Origin: Escherichia phage vB_EcoM_WFL6982
Strand: one strand, 5' to 3'
Sequence record: MK373774.1
DNA length: 64,000 bases
A program made the translations under genes and the position numbers. Shown here piece after piece: positions 40,036-55,670 of the stretch (its first letter is position 1; every line of letters begins with the position of its first letter). Below the pieces are notes generated by a model, which worked only from the letters and a program-made list of their open reading frames with translations, was not told where the DNA came from and did no database searches.

Positions 40036-40896
40036 TTATACCGCCATTTTAGCTTTGATAGTTGGATGAGATTCATAATTTTTAAGAACGAAATCAGAAT
40101 GTGTCATAGTTCCAGTAACCCAGTCCATTTGGATTTTTGTAGGCCAATTCTCAAAATTACTAGGCCAATTAATTTCAAGAGAACATAACTCTTTAGGTTC
40201 ACGACGAAGAACTTCTTTGCATTGTTCTATATGATTGCTGTAGATATGCGTGTTGCCGCCTGAGAACACTAAATCACCTGGGATAAGATTACACATCTTA
40301 GCCACAATATGCGTCAAGGCAGCGTACGAGGCAATGTTGAATGGCAATCCCAAGAAAACATCTACACTGCGTTGATACCATTGTAAATCAAGATGCCCAT
40401 TACGCACATTAAATTGATAGAACATATGACAAGGAGGAAGAGCCATTTGGTCAATTTCGGCCGGGTTCCATGCAGAAACTATTTGACGACGATCATTAGG
40501 AAGAGCTTTAATACGGTCGATAGTTTTGTCCAATTGGTCTACACCACCAAAATCACGCCATTGCTTACCATAAATAGGACCAAGTTCGCCGCTATGATAC
40601 CCAAGGTCTTTTGCCTGATTTTCATAGTTGTCGTCCCAAATAGTTTTACCTTGAATAAGACTACCATGAGTACGAATACGCAAATCATTAACATTGGTAG
40701 AACCAGACATGAACCACAGTAACTCGGCAATACAAGCTTTCCACGCTAATTTCTTAGTTGTTACCGCAGGGAATCCTTTAGTCAGATCCCAACGTAATTT
40801 AGTTCCGAACAGGGCAATTGTTCCTGTGCCTGTACGGTCGTCTGTTTCGTAGCCATTTTCTAGGATATCATTAATCAGGTATTGGTATTGTTTCAT
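40036..40896 (-). CDS. td: thymidylate synthase (uninterrupted, no intron)
   Basis: 286 aa continuous ORF equal to spliced T4 Td length; conserved ThyA motifs. Confidence 0.92.
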   Translation of the reverse strand: MKQYQYLINDILENGYETDDRTGTGTIALFGTKLRWDLTKGFPAVTTKKLAWKACIAELLWFMSGSTNVNDLRIRTHGSLIQGKTIWDDNYENQAKDLGYHSGELGPIYGKQWRDFGGVDQLDKTIDRIKALPNDRRQIVSAWNPAEIDQMALPPCHMFYQFNVRNGHLDLQWYQRSVDVFLGLPFNIASYAALTHIVAKMCNLIPGDLVFSGGNTHIYSNHIEQCKEVLRREPKELCSLEINWPSNFENWPTKIQMDWVTGTMTHSDFVLKNYESHPTIKAKMAV

Positions 40897-41480
40897 TTAT
40901 ATACGCTCTCAGTAATTTCGGTGAGTTCATCGATTCTGTAGTAATGAGATTCTACCATAGAACGTTGAAGCATAATATCTTGGACGAAATCTTTATCAAG
41001 TTGAACATCGGAATTAACACGACATTTCTTAATGATTTTAGTCATCACGATTTCATCGGCATAAGGCAGTGCTTGTTTTAATAGAGCAGGACCGCCGATA
41101 ACAGATACATTAACATGTTCAGTAGAAAGTTTAAACGGTACATCAGTTGCAGGGCTAAACAGGTTAATTTCACCACCTGTTACCAAGGTAATAAATTCAG
41201 ATTGGGTGATATAGAACCGTGCAAGTTCATCAGTTTTAGTCCTAGGCAGTTTTCTGGCCATATCAGTGACAACCACATGAGTACGATCTGGGAGTAGACG
41301 AGGTAATGATGCAAAAGTCTTAGCACCCATAACCATTACAGTGTTTTTAGTGCGAGCAACAAAGTTACTCATATCTTGTTTGATATGCTTCCATGGAAGT
41401 CCATCACCTAATCCAAAAGCATATTCCAGTTTATCATCAACTGTTTTAGATGGTGCGCATGCGAATACTAATTTAAGCAT
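40893..41480 (-). CDS. frd: dihydrofolate reductase
   Basis: 195 aa; high recalled identity to T4 Frd (AFGLGDGLPW, MGAKTF, VIGGPALL). Confidence 0.92.
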   Translation of the reverse strand: MLKLVFACAPSKTVDDKLEYAFGLGDGLPWKHIKQDMSNFVARTKNTVMVMGAKTFASLPRLLPDRTHVVVTDMARKLPRTKTDELARFYITQSEFITLVTGGEINLFSPATDVPFKLSTEHVNVSVIGGPALLKQALPYADEIVMTKIIKKCRVNSDVQLDKDFVQDIMLQRSMVESHYYRIDELTEITESVYK

Positions 41481-41721
41481 TTTTAAGTCCTTTAATAACT
41501 TTTTGGATTTGTGATTTAGACGAAACTAGTTCTGTCTGAATTTCCAAACCATCGGTTTGGTCAAATGTTGTAACACAAACACGAGGTTTTGTTGTGTATC
41601 ATCCAGACAAATCAAATGCATCACCAATGAATTCGGCCAAATCCGGATGGTCTAAATTAACTGAAGTATAAACTTCATATCCGACATCAGCGCCTTGAGA
41701 GTATTCAACAACAACATTCAT
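41473..41721 (-). pseudogene. 82-codon reading frame interrupted by one in-frame TGA (codon 41); nonsense-disrupted gene or UGA read-through candidate
   Basis: ATG 41721 with RBS GAGGAA; in-frame TGA at 41599-41601; frame stays open 41 more codons to TAA overlapping the frd ATG. Confidence 0.35.
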
Positions 41722-41723
41722 AA

Positions 41724-41972
41724 TTATTTCCTCAGATTTTTCTTAACAACTTTCCAATCGGCTTTGAACATTTCAACATCAGAGTGGCAAATCCAGAATC
41801 CTGCACTTTCACCATCTTCGTAGAGTGGACATCCATCACATTCTTCGTTCCAACCCATTTCGCGTAAAGCTTCTTCAGCTTGTTCAAGGAGTTCAGCATC
41901 TTTACCAACGATGTTGAAGTACCATTTACCTCTAACTTCAGAATCTTTGATGCTCTGTCGTTGCAATCTCAT
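41724..41972 (-). CDS. hypothetical protein (frd.x)
   Basis: Start at internal ATG 41972 with RBS GGAGAA; early promoter element 42001-42034 lies inside the longer track ORF. Confidence 0.45.
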   Translation of the reverse strand: MRLQRQSIKDSEVRGKWYFNIVGKDAELLEQAEEALREMGWNEECDGCPLYEDGESAGFWICHSDVEMFKADWKVVKKNLRK

Positions 41973-45841: not shown

Positions 45842-48800
45842 ATGGTTGACATCAAACGTAAGTTCAGGGCCGAAGATGGTCTTGATGCAGGCGGTGATAA
45901 GATAGTTAACGTTGCGCTTGCCGACCGCACAGTTGGCACCGATGGCGTGAACGTTGACTTTTTGGTGCAAGAAAACACCGTACAGAATTATGACGATACG
46001 CGCGCGTATACAAAAGATTTTATTGTTCTTTATAATAATCGTTTTTATCAAGCTTTAAGCGATATTCCAGCTCCGGCAGGCCCTTTCTCTTTGGTTAAAT
46101 GGAAGGCAACTCGTGCAGATGCAGAATGGATTACAGTTCAAGGCGGAGATTTCCAATTATCAGTAGGTAACTCTATTGCGGTTGATACTTCAGCTGGCAC
46201 TGATATTAATTTCACTTTGCCTCAAAATCCTTTAGATGGCGATACAGTTATTTTGTCTGATATTGGCGGTAGAGTAGGCTATGTAAAAGTTCAAATTACG
46301 GCAGAGGCTCAAAGTATTGTAAACTTTAGAGGACAACAGGTTCGTTCAGTTTTAATGACGCACCCAAAATCTAAAATGGTCTTCATTTTTAGCAACCGCC
46401 TATGGCAAATGTATGTTTCTGATTACGAACGTAATGCAGTCACAGTAACTCCTGCTACGCCATATCAAGCACAACCTAATGATTTTATCATTCGACGTTT
46501 TACATCAGCCGCTCCTATTAATATTACATTGCCTCGTAATGCTAATAATGGCGATATTATTAATTTAGTGGATTTAGACAAATTAAACCCATTATATCAC
46601 ACAATTGTCAAAACTTACGATGATACAACTTCTATACGAGAAGCTGGTGTTCATGTAGCAGAAGGACGTAATTTTGCTGATGCTCTTTTTATTTTTGATG
46701 CAGCATCTAGTTTGTGGAGAGTTTGGGAAGGTGACCAGAAATCTCGTTTACGTATAGTTCGTAATGATACTGATTTACGCCCTAATGAAGAAGTTCTTGT
46801 TTTTGGAACTGATAATAATACAATCTCGACGGTAAATCTTACTTTGCCTACAGATATTTTGTCTGGCGATACTGTTAAAATATCGTTGAATTATATGCGT
46901 AAAGGGCAAACTGTAAAAATTAAAGCTGCTGAAGGCGATACAATTGCTAGCAGTATTTCTTTATTACAGTTCCCAAAACGTTCGGAGTATCCACCTGATG
47001 CACAATGGGTTTCTGTTAGTGAGCTGGAATTTAATGGCGATACTTCGTATGTACCTGTACTTGAGTTAGCTTATATAGAAGATTATTCATCTGAAACAAA
47101 ATATTGGGTAGTTCAACAAAACACTGTAACCGTCGAACGAGTCGATGCATCGAGCAATACAACTCGAGCTCGTTTAGGTGTTATTGCTCTTGCTTCTCAA
47201 GCGCAAGCAAATGTTGATTTAGAAAATGCTCCTGGTAAAGAACTGGCTATTACTCCGGAAACATTAGCAAATCGTACAGCAACTGAAACTCGTCGTGGTA
47301 TTGCTCGTATTGCAACAACTGCACAAGTTAACCAGAATACCGATTTTGCATTCCAAGACGACTTGATTATTTCTCCTAAGAAATTGAACGAACGTACAGC
47401 AACTGAAACCCGTAGAGGTGTTGCTGAAGTTGCAACTCAGGCTGAAACTAATGCTGGAACAGATGATACCACTATTATTACTCCTAAGAAATTGGATGCC
47501 CGTCAAGGTTCTGAAGTTTTATCTGGTATTGTAAAATACACATCTACGACTGGTACTACAGCTGCTACTATTCGTGGTAATGCTGGGACTAACGTTTATA
47601 ACAAAGCCGTAGATAATTTAACTATTTCTCCAAAGGCCCTTGACCAATATAAAGCTACCCCTACTCAGCAGGGTGCAGTAATTCTTGCTATTGAAAGCGA
47701 AGTTATCGCTGGCGAATCACAAGCTGGTTGGGCTAATGCTGTAGTGACCCCTGAAACTCTGCATAAGAAAACTTCTACTGATGGACGTATTGGTTTAATT
47801 GAAATTGCTACGCAAGCAGAAACTAACACTGGAACTGATTATACTAGAGCAGTAACGCCTAAGACGTTAAATGATAGGAAAGCTACGGAAGGATTATCTG
47901 GCATAGCCGAAATTGCTACGCAAGTTGAATTTGATACTGGAACTGACGATACTCGTATCTCGTCTCCACTGAAAATTAAAACTCATTTTGATTCTTCTGA
48001 CCGTACCAGTGTTAATTCTGATTCCGGACTTATTGAAGAAGGAACCTTGTGGAACCATTATACTCTTGATATTTCTAAAGCAAATGAAACACAACGTGGT
48101 ACACTTCGTGTAGCGACCCAAGCTGAATCTAATGCAGGAACTTTAGATGACGTTCTTATTACTCCTAAAAAGCTTTTAGGGACTAAGTCCACTGAAACGT
48201 CTGAAGGCGTAATTAAGGTTGCTACTCAGGCTGAAACTGTAACAGGAACTTCTGCTAATACTGCTGTATCTCCTAAGAATTTAAAATGGATTGTTCAATC
48301 AGAACCATCATGGACTGCTACTACGGCAATTCGTGGATTCGTTAAAACTTCATCTGGTTCTATTACATTTGTTGGTAATGATACAGTTGGTTCAACACAA
48401 TCTTTAGAATCATATGAGAAAAATAGCTATGCGGTATCACCATATGAATTAAACCGTGTACTTGCTAACTACTTACCGTTGAAAGCTAAAGCAGCTGATA
48501 GTAATTTGTTAGATGGTCTAGATTCTCTTCAGTTCATCCGTAGAGACATCGACCAGACGGTTAATGGTTCTTTAAGTCTTACTAAACAGACCAACCTGAG
48601 TGCTCCTTTAGTATCTACAAGCACTGCTTCTTTTGGTTCCGAAGCATCTGTTACTCGTAGATTAACTCTTAATGACTCTAGCGGTTCCGAAATATTTTTC
48701 ACTAAAGGAACCCAATCTCTTAGTAATAAAGAGAATTTCGTTGTTAGAGCATGGGGCAATAGCGCTACAGATGGTGCCCGTGATACAGTATTTGAAGCGG

Positions 48801-49675
48801 GTGACGAAACCGGATACCATTTCTATTCTCAGCGCGCTGCTGATAATAAAGTATCATTTAATATTAATGGAACACTTTATTCAACAGGTATTGTTTCTAC
48901 AAATGGATTAAATGTTACAGGTGTTTCTACCTTTACAGGGCCTATTAGTGCTACAGGCGAAATTGTTTCTAGTTCTCCTATTGCATTCAGAGCTATTAAT
49001 GGTAACTATGGTGTTATGCTTTATAATGCTGGTAACAGTTCTTATATTGCATTAACTAACTCAGGTGACCAGACCGGGACGTTTAATAACTTACGCCCGA
49101 TCACGATTAACAACGCCACAGGCTTAGTTCGTCTTGACAATGGTGTTCAAATCACGAGTGGTGCAACAATAACTACCGGTGGGTTAACTGTAAATAACAG
49201 AATTATTTCTAACGGCGTTAAAACCGCCACTGTTTATACCGATAAACCAACAGCTTCTACTGTAGGTTTTTGGTCTATTGACATTAACGATTCTGCTGTA
49301 TATAGCCAATTCCCTGGATACTGGACGCGTGATAACAAAGGTAACCGTGACCAAGAAATTAAATATCCTGGTACTTTGACTCAATTCGGCAATAGCTTAG
49401 ATTCGCTTTATCAGGATTGGATTTGTTATCCTACAGGTGCAAATGGCGGTAGCATTCGATATACTCGTACCTGGCAGAAAAATAAAGATGCTTGGACTTC
49501 ATTTGCAATGGTATTTGATAGTGGCAACCCACCTTCACCTAGCGATGTCGGTGCTATCCCATCTGATAATGCTGTTATTGGAAACCTTACTATTCGAGAC
49601 TTCTTACAATTAGGAAATGTGAGAATTGTTCCAGACCCGGTTAACAAAACAGTTAAATTTATATGGGTTGAATAA
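45842..49675 (+). CDS. 34: long tail fibre proximal subunit gp34
   Basis: 1277 aa; TATAAATA at 45800-45807; internal tandem repeats. Confidence 0.9.
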   Translation: MVDIKRKFRAEDGLDAGGDKIVNVALADRTVGTDGVNVDFLVQENTVQNYDDTRAYTKDFIVLYNNRFYQALSDIPAPAGPFSLVKWKATRADAEWITVQGGDFQLSVGNSIAVDTSAGTDINFTLPQNPLDGDTVILSDIGGRVGYVKVQITAEAQSIVNFRGQQVRSVLMTHPKSKMVFIFSNRLWQMYVSDYERNAVTVTPATPYQAQPNDFIIRRFTSAAPINITLPRNANNGDIINLVDLDKLNPLYHTIVKTYDDTTSIREAGVHVAEGRNFADALFIFDAASSLWRVWEGDQKSRLRIVRNDTDLRPNEEVLVFGTDNNTISTVNLTLPTDILSGDTVKISLNYMRKGQTVKIKAAEGDTIASSISLLQFPKRSEYPPDAQWVSVSELEFNGDTSYVPVLELAYIEDYSSETKYWVVQQNTVTVERVDASSNTTRARLGVIALASQAQANVDLENAPGKELAITPETLANRTATETRRGIARIATTAQVNQNTDFAFQDDLIISPKKLNERTATETRRGVAEVATQAETNAGTDDTTIITPKKLDARQGSEVLSGIVKYTSTTGTTAATIRGNAGTNVYNKAVDNLTISPKALDQYKATPTQQGAVILAIESEVIAGESQAGWANAVVTPETLHKKTSTDGRIGLIEIATQAETNTGTDYTRAVTPKTLNDRKATEGLSGIAEIATQVEFDTGTDDTRISSPLKIKTHFDSSDRTSVNSDSGLIEEGTLWNHYTLDISKANETQRGTLRVATQAESNAGTLDDVLITPKKLLGTKSTETSEGVIKVATQAETVTGTSANTAVSPKNLKWIVQSEPSWTATTAIRGFVKTSSGSITFVGNDTVGSTQSLESYEKNSYAVSPYELNRVLANYLPLKAKAADSNLLDGLDSLQFIRRDIDQTVNGSLSLTKQTNLSAPLVSTSTASFGSEASVTRRLTLNDSSGSEIFFTKGTQSLSNKENFVVRAWGNSATDGARDTVFEAGDETGYHFYSQRAADNKVSFNINGTLYSTGIVSTNGLNVTGVSTFTGPISATGEIVSSSPIAFRAINGNYGVMLYNAGNSSYIALTNSGDQTGTFNNLRPITINNATGLVRLDNGVQITSGATITTGGLTVNNRIISNGVKTATVYTDKPTASTVGFWSIDINDSAVYSQFPGYWTRDNKGNRDQEIKYPGTLTQFGNSLDSLYQDWICYPTGANGGSIRYTRTWQKNKDAWTSFAMVFDSGNPPSPSDVGAIPSDNAVIGNLTIRDFLQLGNVRIVPDPVNKTVKFIWVE
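47260..48290 (+). repeat. tandem coding repeats of about 40 codons within gene 34 (motif ATQAETN.GTDDT..ITPKKL)
   Basis: At least six to seven recognisable repeat units in the translated sequence. Confidence 0.7.
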
Positions 49676-51532: not shown

Positions 51533-54500
51533 ATGGCTACTTTAAAACAAATACAATTTAAAAGAAGCAAAACTGCAGGAGCACGTCCTGCCGCTTCAGT
51601 ATTAGCCGAAGGTGAATTGGCTATAAACTTAAAAGACCGTGTACTTTTTACTAAAGATGACCAAGGAAATATTATTGATCTGGGTTTTGCTAAAGGTGGT
51701 AGTATTGACGGGAATGTTATTCATACTGGCAATTATAACCAAACTGGCGATTATACTTTAAATGGCACCTTCACTCAGACAGGTAATTTTAATTTAACCG
51801 GTATTGCTCGAGTAACACGTGATATTATTGCCGCTGGGCAGATTACGACTGAAGGCGGAGAACTTATTACAAAAAGTTCAGGTACAGCACATGTTCGTTT
51901 TCATGATTCGGCTGATCGTGAACGTGGCATTATTTATTCACCGGCTAATGATGGATTAACTACGCAAGTAGTTAATATCCGCGTTAAAGACTACGCCGCT
52001 GGTGATGAAAGCACCTATGCATTTTCGGGCAGTGGACTATTTACTTCACCTGAAGTATCAGCATGGAAATCTATGTCAACTCCTCAGATTTTGACAAATA
52101 GAGTTATTACTAATAATAAATCTACGAGCGATTATGACATTTATTCTATGGCAGACAACGTTCCATTGTCTGAAAGCACTACTGCTATTAATCATCTCCG
52201 TGTTATGCGCAATGCTGTAGGCGCTGGTGTATTCCATGAAGTTAAAGATAATGATGGAATAACTTGGTATACTGGAGATGGCTTAGACACTTATCTTTGG
52301 TCGTTTACCTGGTCCGGTGGATTGAAAGCAGGCCATTCTATTTCTGTTGGTACTCCTGGTGGCAATAAAGGATACTCTGAATTAGGGACTGCTTCAATTT
52401 CTCTTGGTGATAATGATACTGGATTTAAATGGCATCAGGATGGATATTTCCATACAGTAAACAACGGAACAAGAACTTTCATTTACGGTCCTGCGGAAAC
52501 ACAAAGCCTTAGAAAAATGGTTATGGGTTATTCTCCGGATGGTGTTCTTATGACAACGCCACCGACAGAAAACTATGCTTTGGCTACTGTTGTTACTTAC
52601 CATGATAATAATGCATACGGCGATGGTCAAACACTTTTAGGATATTATCAAGGTGGTAATTACCACCACTATTTCCGTGGTAAAGGCACTACAAATATTA
52701 ACACTGCAGGCGGATTGTTAGTTACTCCAGGCAATATTGACGTTATTGGTGGTTCTGTTAATATCGATGGTAGAAATAATTCTTCTACGCTGATGTTTAG
52801 AGGTAACACAACAGGATACAGCTCAGTTGATAATATGGATATTAAAGTTTGGGGTAATACGTTTGTTGATCCAAGCGGAGGTATCCGTAAAAACATTATG
52901 GAAATTTCTGATGCAACTAGCTGGATGAGCTATATTCAAAGACTTACTACTGGCGAAGTAGAAATGAACGTTAATGGTTCATTTGAATCATCTGGTGTTA
53001 CTGCTGGAGATAGAGGAGTTCACACAACAGGTGAAATTTCATCTGGAGCAGTGAATGCTCTTCGTATTTGGAACGCAGATTATGGAGCCATTTTTAGACG
53101 TTCAGAAGGAAGTCTTCATATTATTCCAACTGCTTATGGCGAAGGCAAAGATGGCGATATTGGTCCACTTCGCCCGTTTAGTATGGCTTTAGATACCGGT
53201 AAAGTTACTATTCCAGATTTACAATCAAGTTACAATACGTTTGCTGCTAACGGTTATATTAAATTTGTTGGTCATGGAGCGGGTGCCGGCGGTTATGACA
53301 TTCAATATGCTCAAGCGGCTCCTATTTTCCAGGAAATTGATGATGATGCTGTAAGCAAATATTATCCTATTGTTAAACAGAAGTTTTTAAATGGTAAAGC
53401 TGTTTGGTCTTTAGGTACTGAAATTAGTTCAGGTACATTCGTTATTCATCATCTGAAAGAAGATGGTTCACAAGGCCATACGTCTCGTTTTAATCAAGAC
53501 GGTACTGTTAACTTCCCAGATAACGTTTCTGTCGGCGGCGGTGAAGCTACTATTGCTCGCAATGGTAATATCTGGTCTGATATCTGGAAAACGTTTACTT
53601 CAGCAGGCGACGTAACTAATATTCGCGATGCAATAGCTACTCGTGTTGCTAAAGAAGGTGATACGATGACCGGTAGGTTGACTTTATCTGCTGGAAATGA
53701 TGCCCTTGTTTTAACTGCAGGCACGGGCGCTTCATCGCACATCCGTAGTGATGTAGGTGGTACAAATAATTGGTTTATAGGCAAAGGCGGCGGTGACAAT
53801 AGTATAAGTTTTTACAGTTACATTACACAAGGCGGTGTAAACATAACAAATAACGGCGAAATAGCGCTTTCTACTCAAGGACAAGGAACATTTAATTTTA
53901 ATAGAGACCGCCTTCATATAAACGGTACACAATGGACCGCACACCAGGCTGGCGATTGGGGAAATCAATGGCGCCAGGAAGCTCCTGTATTTGTGGATTT
54001 TGGTAATGTCGGTAATGATAGTTATTATCCTATTATTAAAGGAAAATCTGGTATTACTAATGAAGGGTATATATCTGGTGTAGATTTTGGTATGCGACGC
54101 ATTCCTAATAACTGGGCACAAGGTATTATTCGTGTAGGTAATCAGGAAAACGGTTCCGACCCACAAGCTATCTTCGAATTCCACCATAATGGAAACATGT
54201 ACGTTCCTGACATGGTTAAAGCTGGAGTAAGAATATCAGCTGGTGGAGGTGACCCTGCATGGACAGGCGCATGTGTTGTTATTGGTGATAATGACACCGG
54301 ATTAGTTCATGGTGGTGACGGCCGAATCAATATGGTTGCCAATGGTATACATATTGCAAACTGGGGAGCAGGCTATCAATCTCATCCTGGGCTTTGGGAT
54401 TCAACCGGTGCTTTTTGGACAGAAGTTGGAAGAGCTATCGTTTCTCATGGGCATCTCGTTCAGGCAAATGATAGTTATTCAACGTTTGTCCGTGATGTTT

Positions 54501-54875: not shown

Positions 54876-55670
54876 ATGGCAGTAACAGGACCGTGGGTAG
54901 GATCGTCTGCAGTAGTTAATACAGGACAAAATTGGATGGGCGGCGCGGCCCAACGATTAAGAATGGGTGCTCCATTTTGGATGAGTAATATGATAGGTCG
55001 ATCTGTTGAAGTAATTCACACGCTTGGAGCAGACCATAACTTCAATGGTCAATGGTTCCGAGATAGATGTTTTGAGGCAGGTAGTGCACCTATAGTGTTT
55101 AATATTACTGGAGATTTAGTATCATATTCTAGAGATGTGCCACTTTTCTTTATGTATGGGGATACGCCTAATGAATATGTTGTTCTTAATATTCATGGTG
55201 GTGTTCATATGTGGGGTCGTGGTGGTAATGGTGGATACACTCACTCAGGAGGCGACGGTAACGGTACACAAGGCGGTCATGTTATTCAAAATGATATCGG
55301 TGGACGGCTTCGTATTTGGAACTACGGTGTTATAGCTGCTGGTGGTGGCGGTGGTGGTGGTATTGCATATCGTCCACACTCAGGGGCAAACTGGCAAGAT
55401 ATCGGTGGCGGTGGTGGTCGACCTTTCGGTGGCGCTGGCGGCGGCGGCGTACGTGGCGGTGGAGCTTCTTATGAAGGTCCGGGTGGTGGATATAACTATG
55501 GTAACGCTCACTCTGGGCAGGGTGGCAATGCTGGTGCAGCCGGACAAAACGCGTGGTCTGACGGCGGTAAAGTTCTAAAAGTTGGAGCAGGTGGTGCGTC
55601 TGGTCATGCAGTGTTTGGATCTTCTCCAACTTGGGGTGCTGTTGGAACAATTTACGGACCAAGAGTATAA
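54876..55670 (+). CDS. 38: T2-type gp38 receptor-binding adhesin with glycine-rich motifs
   Basis: Starts MAVTGPW after RBS GGAGG (track ORF begins at upstream TTG); conserved N-terminal gp37-attachment region, then poly-Gly motifs separating variable segments. Confidence 0.85.
55320..55470 (+). repeat. (GGT/GGC)n simple-sequence tracts encoding the glycine-rich motifs of gp38
   Basis: Runs such as ggtggtggcggtggtggtggt visible in sequence; these are coding. Confidence 0.7.

Follow-up and report, generated by a model that had tools for sequence, protein, structure and literature searches.

Our data point toward a recent nonsense mutation as the very probable origin of the in-frame UGA that interrupts an 82-codon frame between frd.1 and frd in Escherichia phage vB_EcoM_WFL6982; the mutation would be specific to one lineage, represented by this phage and its sibling vB_EcoM_WFK only, and it would have struck a small accessory gene of the family phrog_3183. 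The frame lies in a window of 64,000 nucleotides from sequence record MK373774.1. A reading made from the sequence alone had offered three explanations for it: a gene recently inactivated by a nonsense mutation, a sequencing error, or a UGA read-through that produces an extended protein. The first of these is upheld by the comparison with relatives. The orthologues have a sense codon at the position in question, this codon is one base away from a stop, the one-base change is found in a single lineage, and elsewhere the gene is under purifying selection. The locus is a disrupted member of phrog_3183, either a pseudogene or a leaky null.

Layout of the interrupted frame

The features of the locus are collected in Table 1. 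The frame opens with the ATG at 41721 to 41719, 2 nt (TT) past the TAA (41726 to 41724) of the upstream gene, runs through 40 sense codons to the TGA at 41601 to 41599, and continues on the same minus strand for another 41 sense codons to the TAA at 41475 to 41473. Its translation is MNVVVEYSQGADVGYEVYTSVNLDHPDLAEFIGDAFDLSG up to the premature stop and YTTKPRVCVTTFDQTDGLEIQTELVSSKSQIQKVIKGLKNA from there to the terminal stop. The start codon, the 2-nt spacing, the GAGGAA motif, the TGA at codon 41, and the 41 codons that follow are all located as the sequence-only reading had given them. It had also let the terminal TAA overlap the ATG of frd, which is correct in part: the disrupted frame does overlap frd, by 8 nt (ATGCTTAA), but the frd ATG occupies 41480 to 41478 and the TAA falls in frd codons 2 and 3, not on the ATG itself. 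The upstream gene, formerly called frd.x, is a DUF5417/Frd.1 homologue, as indicated by a Pfam match and by notes in the records of JS09 and HX01.

Table 1. Features of the interrupted frame and its surroundings (window coordinates unless stated otherwise)
Feature	Position	Strand	Description and basis
Disrupted gene	41473..41721	minus	82-codon accessory gene of the phrog_3183 family with one in-frame TGA; translation, end-to-end match to phrog_3183
Premature stop TGA, codon 41	41599..41601	minus	T at 41601, C in relatives (CGA, Arg)
40-codon stub, terminated product	41599..41721	minus	GenBank hypothetical proteins WFK_00233 and WFL6982_00233
Remnant, codons 42-82 and original TAA	41473..41598	minus	Identical to intact relatives; translated only on TGA read-through
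Shine-Dalgarno-like GAGGAA	41728..41733	minus	6 nt upstream of ATG 41721; read from the sequence
Upstream neighbour, frd.1 homologue (DUF5417)	41724..41972	minus	Pfam PF17438, E 2.9e-34
Downstream neighbour frd (dihydrofolate reductase)	40893..41480	minus	Own AAGGA at 41492-41488, 7 nt upstream of ATG
gp34 insertion site	49417-49471 (gp34 3' end); MK373775.1 149749-150006	plus	

A scan for promoters and terminators found no promoter-like or terminator-like site inside the frame on the strand of the gene, and the gene is therefore placed within a run of co-oriented genes that, after the terminator of gene 32, comprises frd.2, frd.1, the disrupted gene, frd, and td. The last of these, td (thymidylate synthase; 40036-40896, minus strand), is a continuous ORF of 286 codons without a group I intron or homing endonuclease, in contrast to the td of T4, which has them.

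The probability that 41 codons remain free of stops by chance had been put at 5 to 15%, and this estimate holds: base composition gives 5.5%, and a length of at least 41 codons is reached by 6.8% of the stop-to-stop runs when all six frames of the window are counted and by 6.2% of those obtained after shuffling. An open run of this length is by itself only mildly unusual, so that what decides the question is how relatives look at this locus and not the statistics of the run.

Codon 41 in relatives and siblings

The closest relative, SCS57, differs from the window at a single one of the 249 nt, a C-to-T change at ORF position 121 (window position 41601) that turns CGA (Arg) into TGA. Where the annotation of WFK has a stub of 123 nt, the records of SCS57 and NicPhage have a single CDS of 249 nt over the whole interval. 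All 12 other phage orthologues that were compared (82 to 99.6% nucleotide identity, 81 to 82 codons) are uninterrupted; ten of them have CGA at the homologous codon, and GAA is found in the two orthologues of 81 aa, which are the most divergent. The only metagenome contig that carries the site, OBCQ01000004.1 (167.6 kb), is likewise intact and has CGA. Over these 13 sequences, the codon is CGA in 11, GAA in 2, and a stop in none, so that the check proposed along with the sequence-only reading, a look for a sense codon in orthologous loci, gave a uniform answer. The same reading had named two outcomes that would speak against an interrupted gene, namely two independent genes in the orthologues and a downstream half that is not conserved; what the relatives have is a single gene of 81 to 82 codons, and its C-terminal half is conserved at the protein level. 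Intact phrog_3183 proteins of Mosigvirus, for example those of APCEc01, mar005P1, JS09, and phi25-307, resemble the disrupted gene in lying between frd.1 and frd, in their ribosome binding site, and in the 8-nt overlap with frd. Compared to the form found in APCEc01 and mar005P1, 81 of the 82 codons are identical; the difference is codon 41, TGA instead of CGA, as a consequence of which only residues 1 to 40 would be made efficiently.

In the record of SCS57 (OM960734.1), N bases are dispersed through gene 32 and point to a consensus of lower quality or of mixed origin there; the comparison of the frd.1-frd region is unaffected.

The gene was detected by tblastn in 77 phage records, all of them Mosigvirus-like and each with one full-length match. 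By contrast, a 30-mer with the T allele, centred so that every 28-nt seed word contains the T, matches WFK alone among 50,697 phage records. In a collection of 15 billion proteins, the exact 40-aa stub is represented by WFK_00233 and WFL6982_00233 only, and the intact 82-aa sequence occurs on 53 contigs; a full-length protein with Trp at position 41 is absent from this collection. Pattern scans of IMG/VR had no match for the TGA allele, for the CGA allele used as a positive control, or for a pattern tolerating C or T, indicating that the sequence is absent from IMG/VR; these scans therefore carry no weight for or against the mutation. One Logan contig (25631 of SRR13668452) was considered as an independent occurrence of the stub and rejected, since its gene call is cut by the end of the contig and it has the C allele. 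This contig ends in ...TCTGGGC at base 911, one base into codon 41 and thus at the mutated position; this may be a coincidence, or it may reflect a break of the graph where co-occurring Mosigvirus strains diverge.

Besides WFL6982 itself, the stop is found in vB_EcoM_WFK (MK373775.1; genus Mosigvirus), which is 100% identical to the window over 24 kb and is the only record with at least 99% identity over these 24 kb; the 3.8-kb locus, too, is identical. Both isolates came from one sewage sample (Wolfenbüttel, November 2015) and one host, DSM 101124; the genome of WFK has 164,590 bp at 455x coverage and that of WFL6982 (MK373774) 164,279 bp at 174x (Korf et al. 2019; PMC6563267). That the two sequences are separate assemblies is clear from their differences, which lie in gp34 and at a few further positions. 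In MK373775.1, an insertion of 313 nt, flanked by a perfect direct repeat of 55 bp, splits the long-tail-fibre gene gp34 into three annotated CDSs. The window does not have this insertion, and its gp34 is intact (45842-49675, plus strand, 1277 aa) and contiguous with that of relatives at 99.3%. The insertion may have been introduced during assembly, or it may be a genuine duplication by which WFK can be told apart from its sibling WFL6982. In the last 18.6 kb, the window and MK373775.1 differ otherwise only by an A/C SNP at 53873 and by a cluster at 55449-55453, where one deleted nucleotide, one inserted nucleotide, and two substitutions fall into a 5-nt stretch inside an adhesin gene. These positions (plus strand) belong to the region of the gp37-like tail fibre and the gp38 adhesin, and the changes could be sibling variation relevant to host range or local assembly noise.

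These genomes also bear on the second of the three explanations, an error of sequencing or assembly in a phage that truly has CGA and an intact 82-codon gene. The T has been seen in one lineage, by one laboratory, and in one study, so that a systematic error common to both records is conceivable, and the GenBank record of WFK does have at least one suspicious feature elsewhere, the insertion that splits the essential gp34. But the T is common to two genomes that were isolated and assembled separately and that are not identical, as gp34 and the few further differences show; their coverage was 455x and 174x, and the change, a substitution, does not lie in a homopolymer. The platforms used were PacBio RSII or Illumina MiSeq, and a substitution of this kind is not a typical error of either. 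Since two separately sequenced siblings share the stub, we consider an error unlikely.

Selection, family, and predicted fold

In an alignment of eleven 249-nt sequences (the window and ten orthologues), variable columns number 4, 5, and 23 at codon positions 1, 2, and 3, respectively, and pairwise pN/pS values among the relatives range from 0 to 0.14 in the N-terminal half and from 0.18 to 0.35 in the C-terminal half. Judged by these substitution patterns, both halves are under purifying selection in the relatives. When codon 41 is repaired to Arg, residues 1-82 of the protein match positions 1-80 of the 80 in the phrog_3183 profile (E 2.3e-28). Hence, the locus has the full-length profile match of a family member, and what it does not have is an uninterrupted frame over the whole domain, owing to the TGA at codon 41. 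No Pfam family matched the repaired protein above the cut-off; a sub-threshold match to EGF2_RECK is meaningless. Beyond the cluster of the query itself, a wide protein search returned three clusters, and the family of the gene is too narrow for inferences from remote homology. The cluster at 90% identity that contains the 82-aa protein also contains dihydrofolate reductases of 195 aa, one of which is its representative, although the proteins are unrelated. This mixed cluster may be an artefact of clustering overlapping genes, or there may be a fused gene call somewhere, and it may explain the three outside clusters returned by the search.

An AlphaFold (AF2) model of a close homologue, for which one of five runs was confident (mean pLDDT 90.4), predicts one compact ββα-ββα domain with strands at residues 2-8, 15-22, 48-54, and 59-66 and helices at 28-42 and 70-81. 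An independent model of the phi25-307 orthologue in BFVD has the same fold (TM 0.98). Full-length structural relatives of 76 to 86 aa are encoded by the T4-like phages SP18, PEi26, EcS1, and SH7, with TM scores of 0.73 to 0.79 at 20 to 26% identity. Matches in the PDB to ββαββα folds resembling the small subunit of RuBisCO were discarded, since their E values are 0.05 or worse, their TM scores are about 0.5, and the topology is generic.

In the model, the stop at codon 41 coincides with the end of the first helix (28-42), and the domain spans it. A fragment of 40 aa would be left without two of the four β-strands and without the C-terminal helix; because half of the sheet and this helix are removed, the model suggests that the fragment is most likely nonfunctional and unlikely to fold. 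The same model argues against two independent small genes, the second half being translated by re-initiation. An in-frame TTG at 41547 would indeed open an ORF of 24 codons, but it lies 18 codons past the stop and is not preceded by a convincing Shine-Dalgarno sequence, and none of the relatives has a start codon at codon 42. Furthermore, every relative encodes one continuous protein, and the predicted single domain builds its sheet with strands from both halves. We regard such a pair of genes as extremely improbable.

Decoding of the UGA and the variable slot upstream of frd

If the UGA had a function of its own, it would be kept in order to make an abundant peptide of 40 aa together with a rare 82-aa protein that carries the exchange R41W. 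The frame downstream of the stop is fully open and identical to that of functional relatives, as functional read-through would have it, but the recency of the mutation accounts for the open frame as well. In E. coli K-12, UGA leaks at about 2 to 4%; read-through of a UGA reporter in the wild type was about 2% at 37 °C and 4% at 25 °C, by Trp-tRNA-Trp in competition with RF2 (PMC10570021). Data on stop-codon context in mammalian cells (PMC9841425) were not applied to our claims on E. coli. The UGA is also bracketed by a long-range stem at 41532-41610 (minus strand), in which 10 bp (TTGTCTGGAT and ATTCAGACAG) enclose an inner hairpin and whose fold has a z score of −3.4 against dinucleotide shuffles. 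But this stem was rejected as a recoding signal and is probably fortuitous: the relatives retain 7 to 9 of the 10 pairs, the lost pairs are not compensated, no covariation is seen among the relatives, and the tenth pair is created by the C-to-T change itself. No Rfam family matched at the locus, neither a recoding element nor anything SECIS-like.

Conservation of the stop is the hallmark of programmed recoding, and here it is missing from each of the 13 other orthologous sequences and from every database record outside the lineage. The tRNAs encoded by the phage are those for Arg (UCU), Asn (GUU), and Met (CAU) only, which leaves it without a UCA suppressor, and the full-length protein with W41 is absent from the protein collection. 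The base after the stop is a U; Poole, Brown, and Tate are said to have reported in 1995 that this makes the strongest termination context in E. coli. With a stop that is confined to one lineage, no suppressor tRNA, no conserved structure, and a UGA-U context, functional read-through, the third explanation offered by the sequence-only reading, is highly improbable. A known precedent for comparison is the A1 (read-through) protein of Qbeta; there, too, an E. coli phage has an in-frame UGA with an open, protein-like frame behind it, and tRNA-Trp would be the expected decoder in both cases. In Qbeta, however, both the stop and the extension are conserved and the phage cannot do without the extended product, whereas the stop described here is unique to one lineage; moreover, Qbeta adds an extension to a core, whereas the UGA here interrupts a single domain.

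UGA is also the codon for selenocysteine, and some RNA structure is predicted downstream of it. But the orthologues have Arg or Glu at this position, never Cys or selenocysteine, and therefore insertion of selenocysteine is excluded for all practical purposes; in addition, the RNA structure is not conserved and no SECIS-like family was matched.

Passive read-through is a different matter. Since termination at UGA is by nature incomplete in E. coli K-12, a few percent of the ribosomes may insert Trp and give a small amount of R41W protein in K-12-type hosts, so that the mutation may be leaky rather than a complete null.

The place that the gene occupies differs among its relatives. Among 155 records with a match to the neighbourhood, the phrog_3183 gene is present in 77. 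It is cleanly absent from PECP20, in which frd starts 2 nt past the stop of frd.1, exactly where the gene starts here, and is served by the GAGGAA motif; in O157 typing phage 13, the slot is filled by an unrelated ORF of 83 codons (83 aa) without BLASTP similarity. The junction of frd.1 and frd (window 41721-41724) is thus a variable cassette slot in Mosigvirus, which may be empty or hold the phrog_3183 gene or an unrelated ORF, and the tight architecture, with a 2-nt spacing or overlapping stops, is kept in each of these states. Since the slot is variable, the phrog_3183 gene is dispensable.

The stop may also affect the gene downstream. In the relatives, the 8-nt overlap would allow translational coupling of frd to the phrog_3183 gene. 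In WFK and WFL6982, ribosomes would terminate 118 nt short of the frd ATG, and therefore frd would depend on its own AAGGA motif (Table 1); we infer that the coupling has been lost in this lineage.

In our model, a single C-to-T transition at 41601 would have changed codon 41 from CGA to TGA, and ribosomes starting at the ATG at 41721 would terminate after 40 residues. That the 41 codons downstream are still open would be explained by the recency of the mutation, which has left no time for further decay. As WFK and WFL6982 are effectively one lineage, the mutation would go back to a single event, in the environment or during enrichment. The phage would tolerate the loss because the gene is dispensable, as seen from close relatives that do without the gene or have an unrelated ORF in its slot, and a neutral or nearly neutral loss fits these observations. 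It is imaginable that the UGA allele is instead kept because it is useful, either through regulated low-level read-through that would turn the gene down to a few percent of full-length R41W protein beside the 40-residue peptide or because loss of the protein helps on the host DSM 101124, for example by escape from a host defence that senses the product; we consider this very unlikely.

A recent nonsense mutation in an accessory gene is a kind of event that is already well known. Opal (UGA) mutants of T-even phages and lineage-specific pseudogenes in variable accessory regions of T4-like phages are similar in that a one-base change creates a premature UGA in a nonessential gene of the early region and the phage stays viable; they are similar, too, in the open downstream frame, which marks a recent event, and in the slight leakiness of UGA in E. 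coli. Unlike the T-even opal mutants, the mutation described here was not induced by mutagenesis; it stems from an environmental isolate, in which it appeared naturally or in the course of enrichment, and the affected gene is one without known function.

In sum, the significance of the finding lies mostly in annotation, and it opens no question on the genetic code or on recoding. The 40-aa entries WFK_00233 and WFL6982_00233 represent what is left of a disrupted 82-codon gene and should be flagged accordingly in the annotation, and the "intergenic" gap of 126 nt before frd is the second half of that gene. Beyond annotation, WFK and WFL6982 constitute a natural knock-out, which shows that plaques can form on the isolation host without the phrog_3183 gene, and this fits the pattern of presence and absence of the gene among Mosigviruses.
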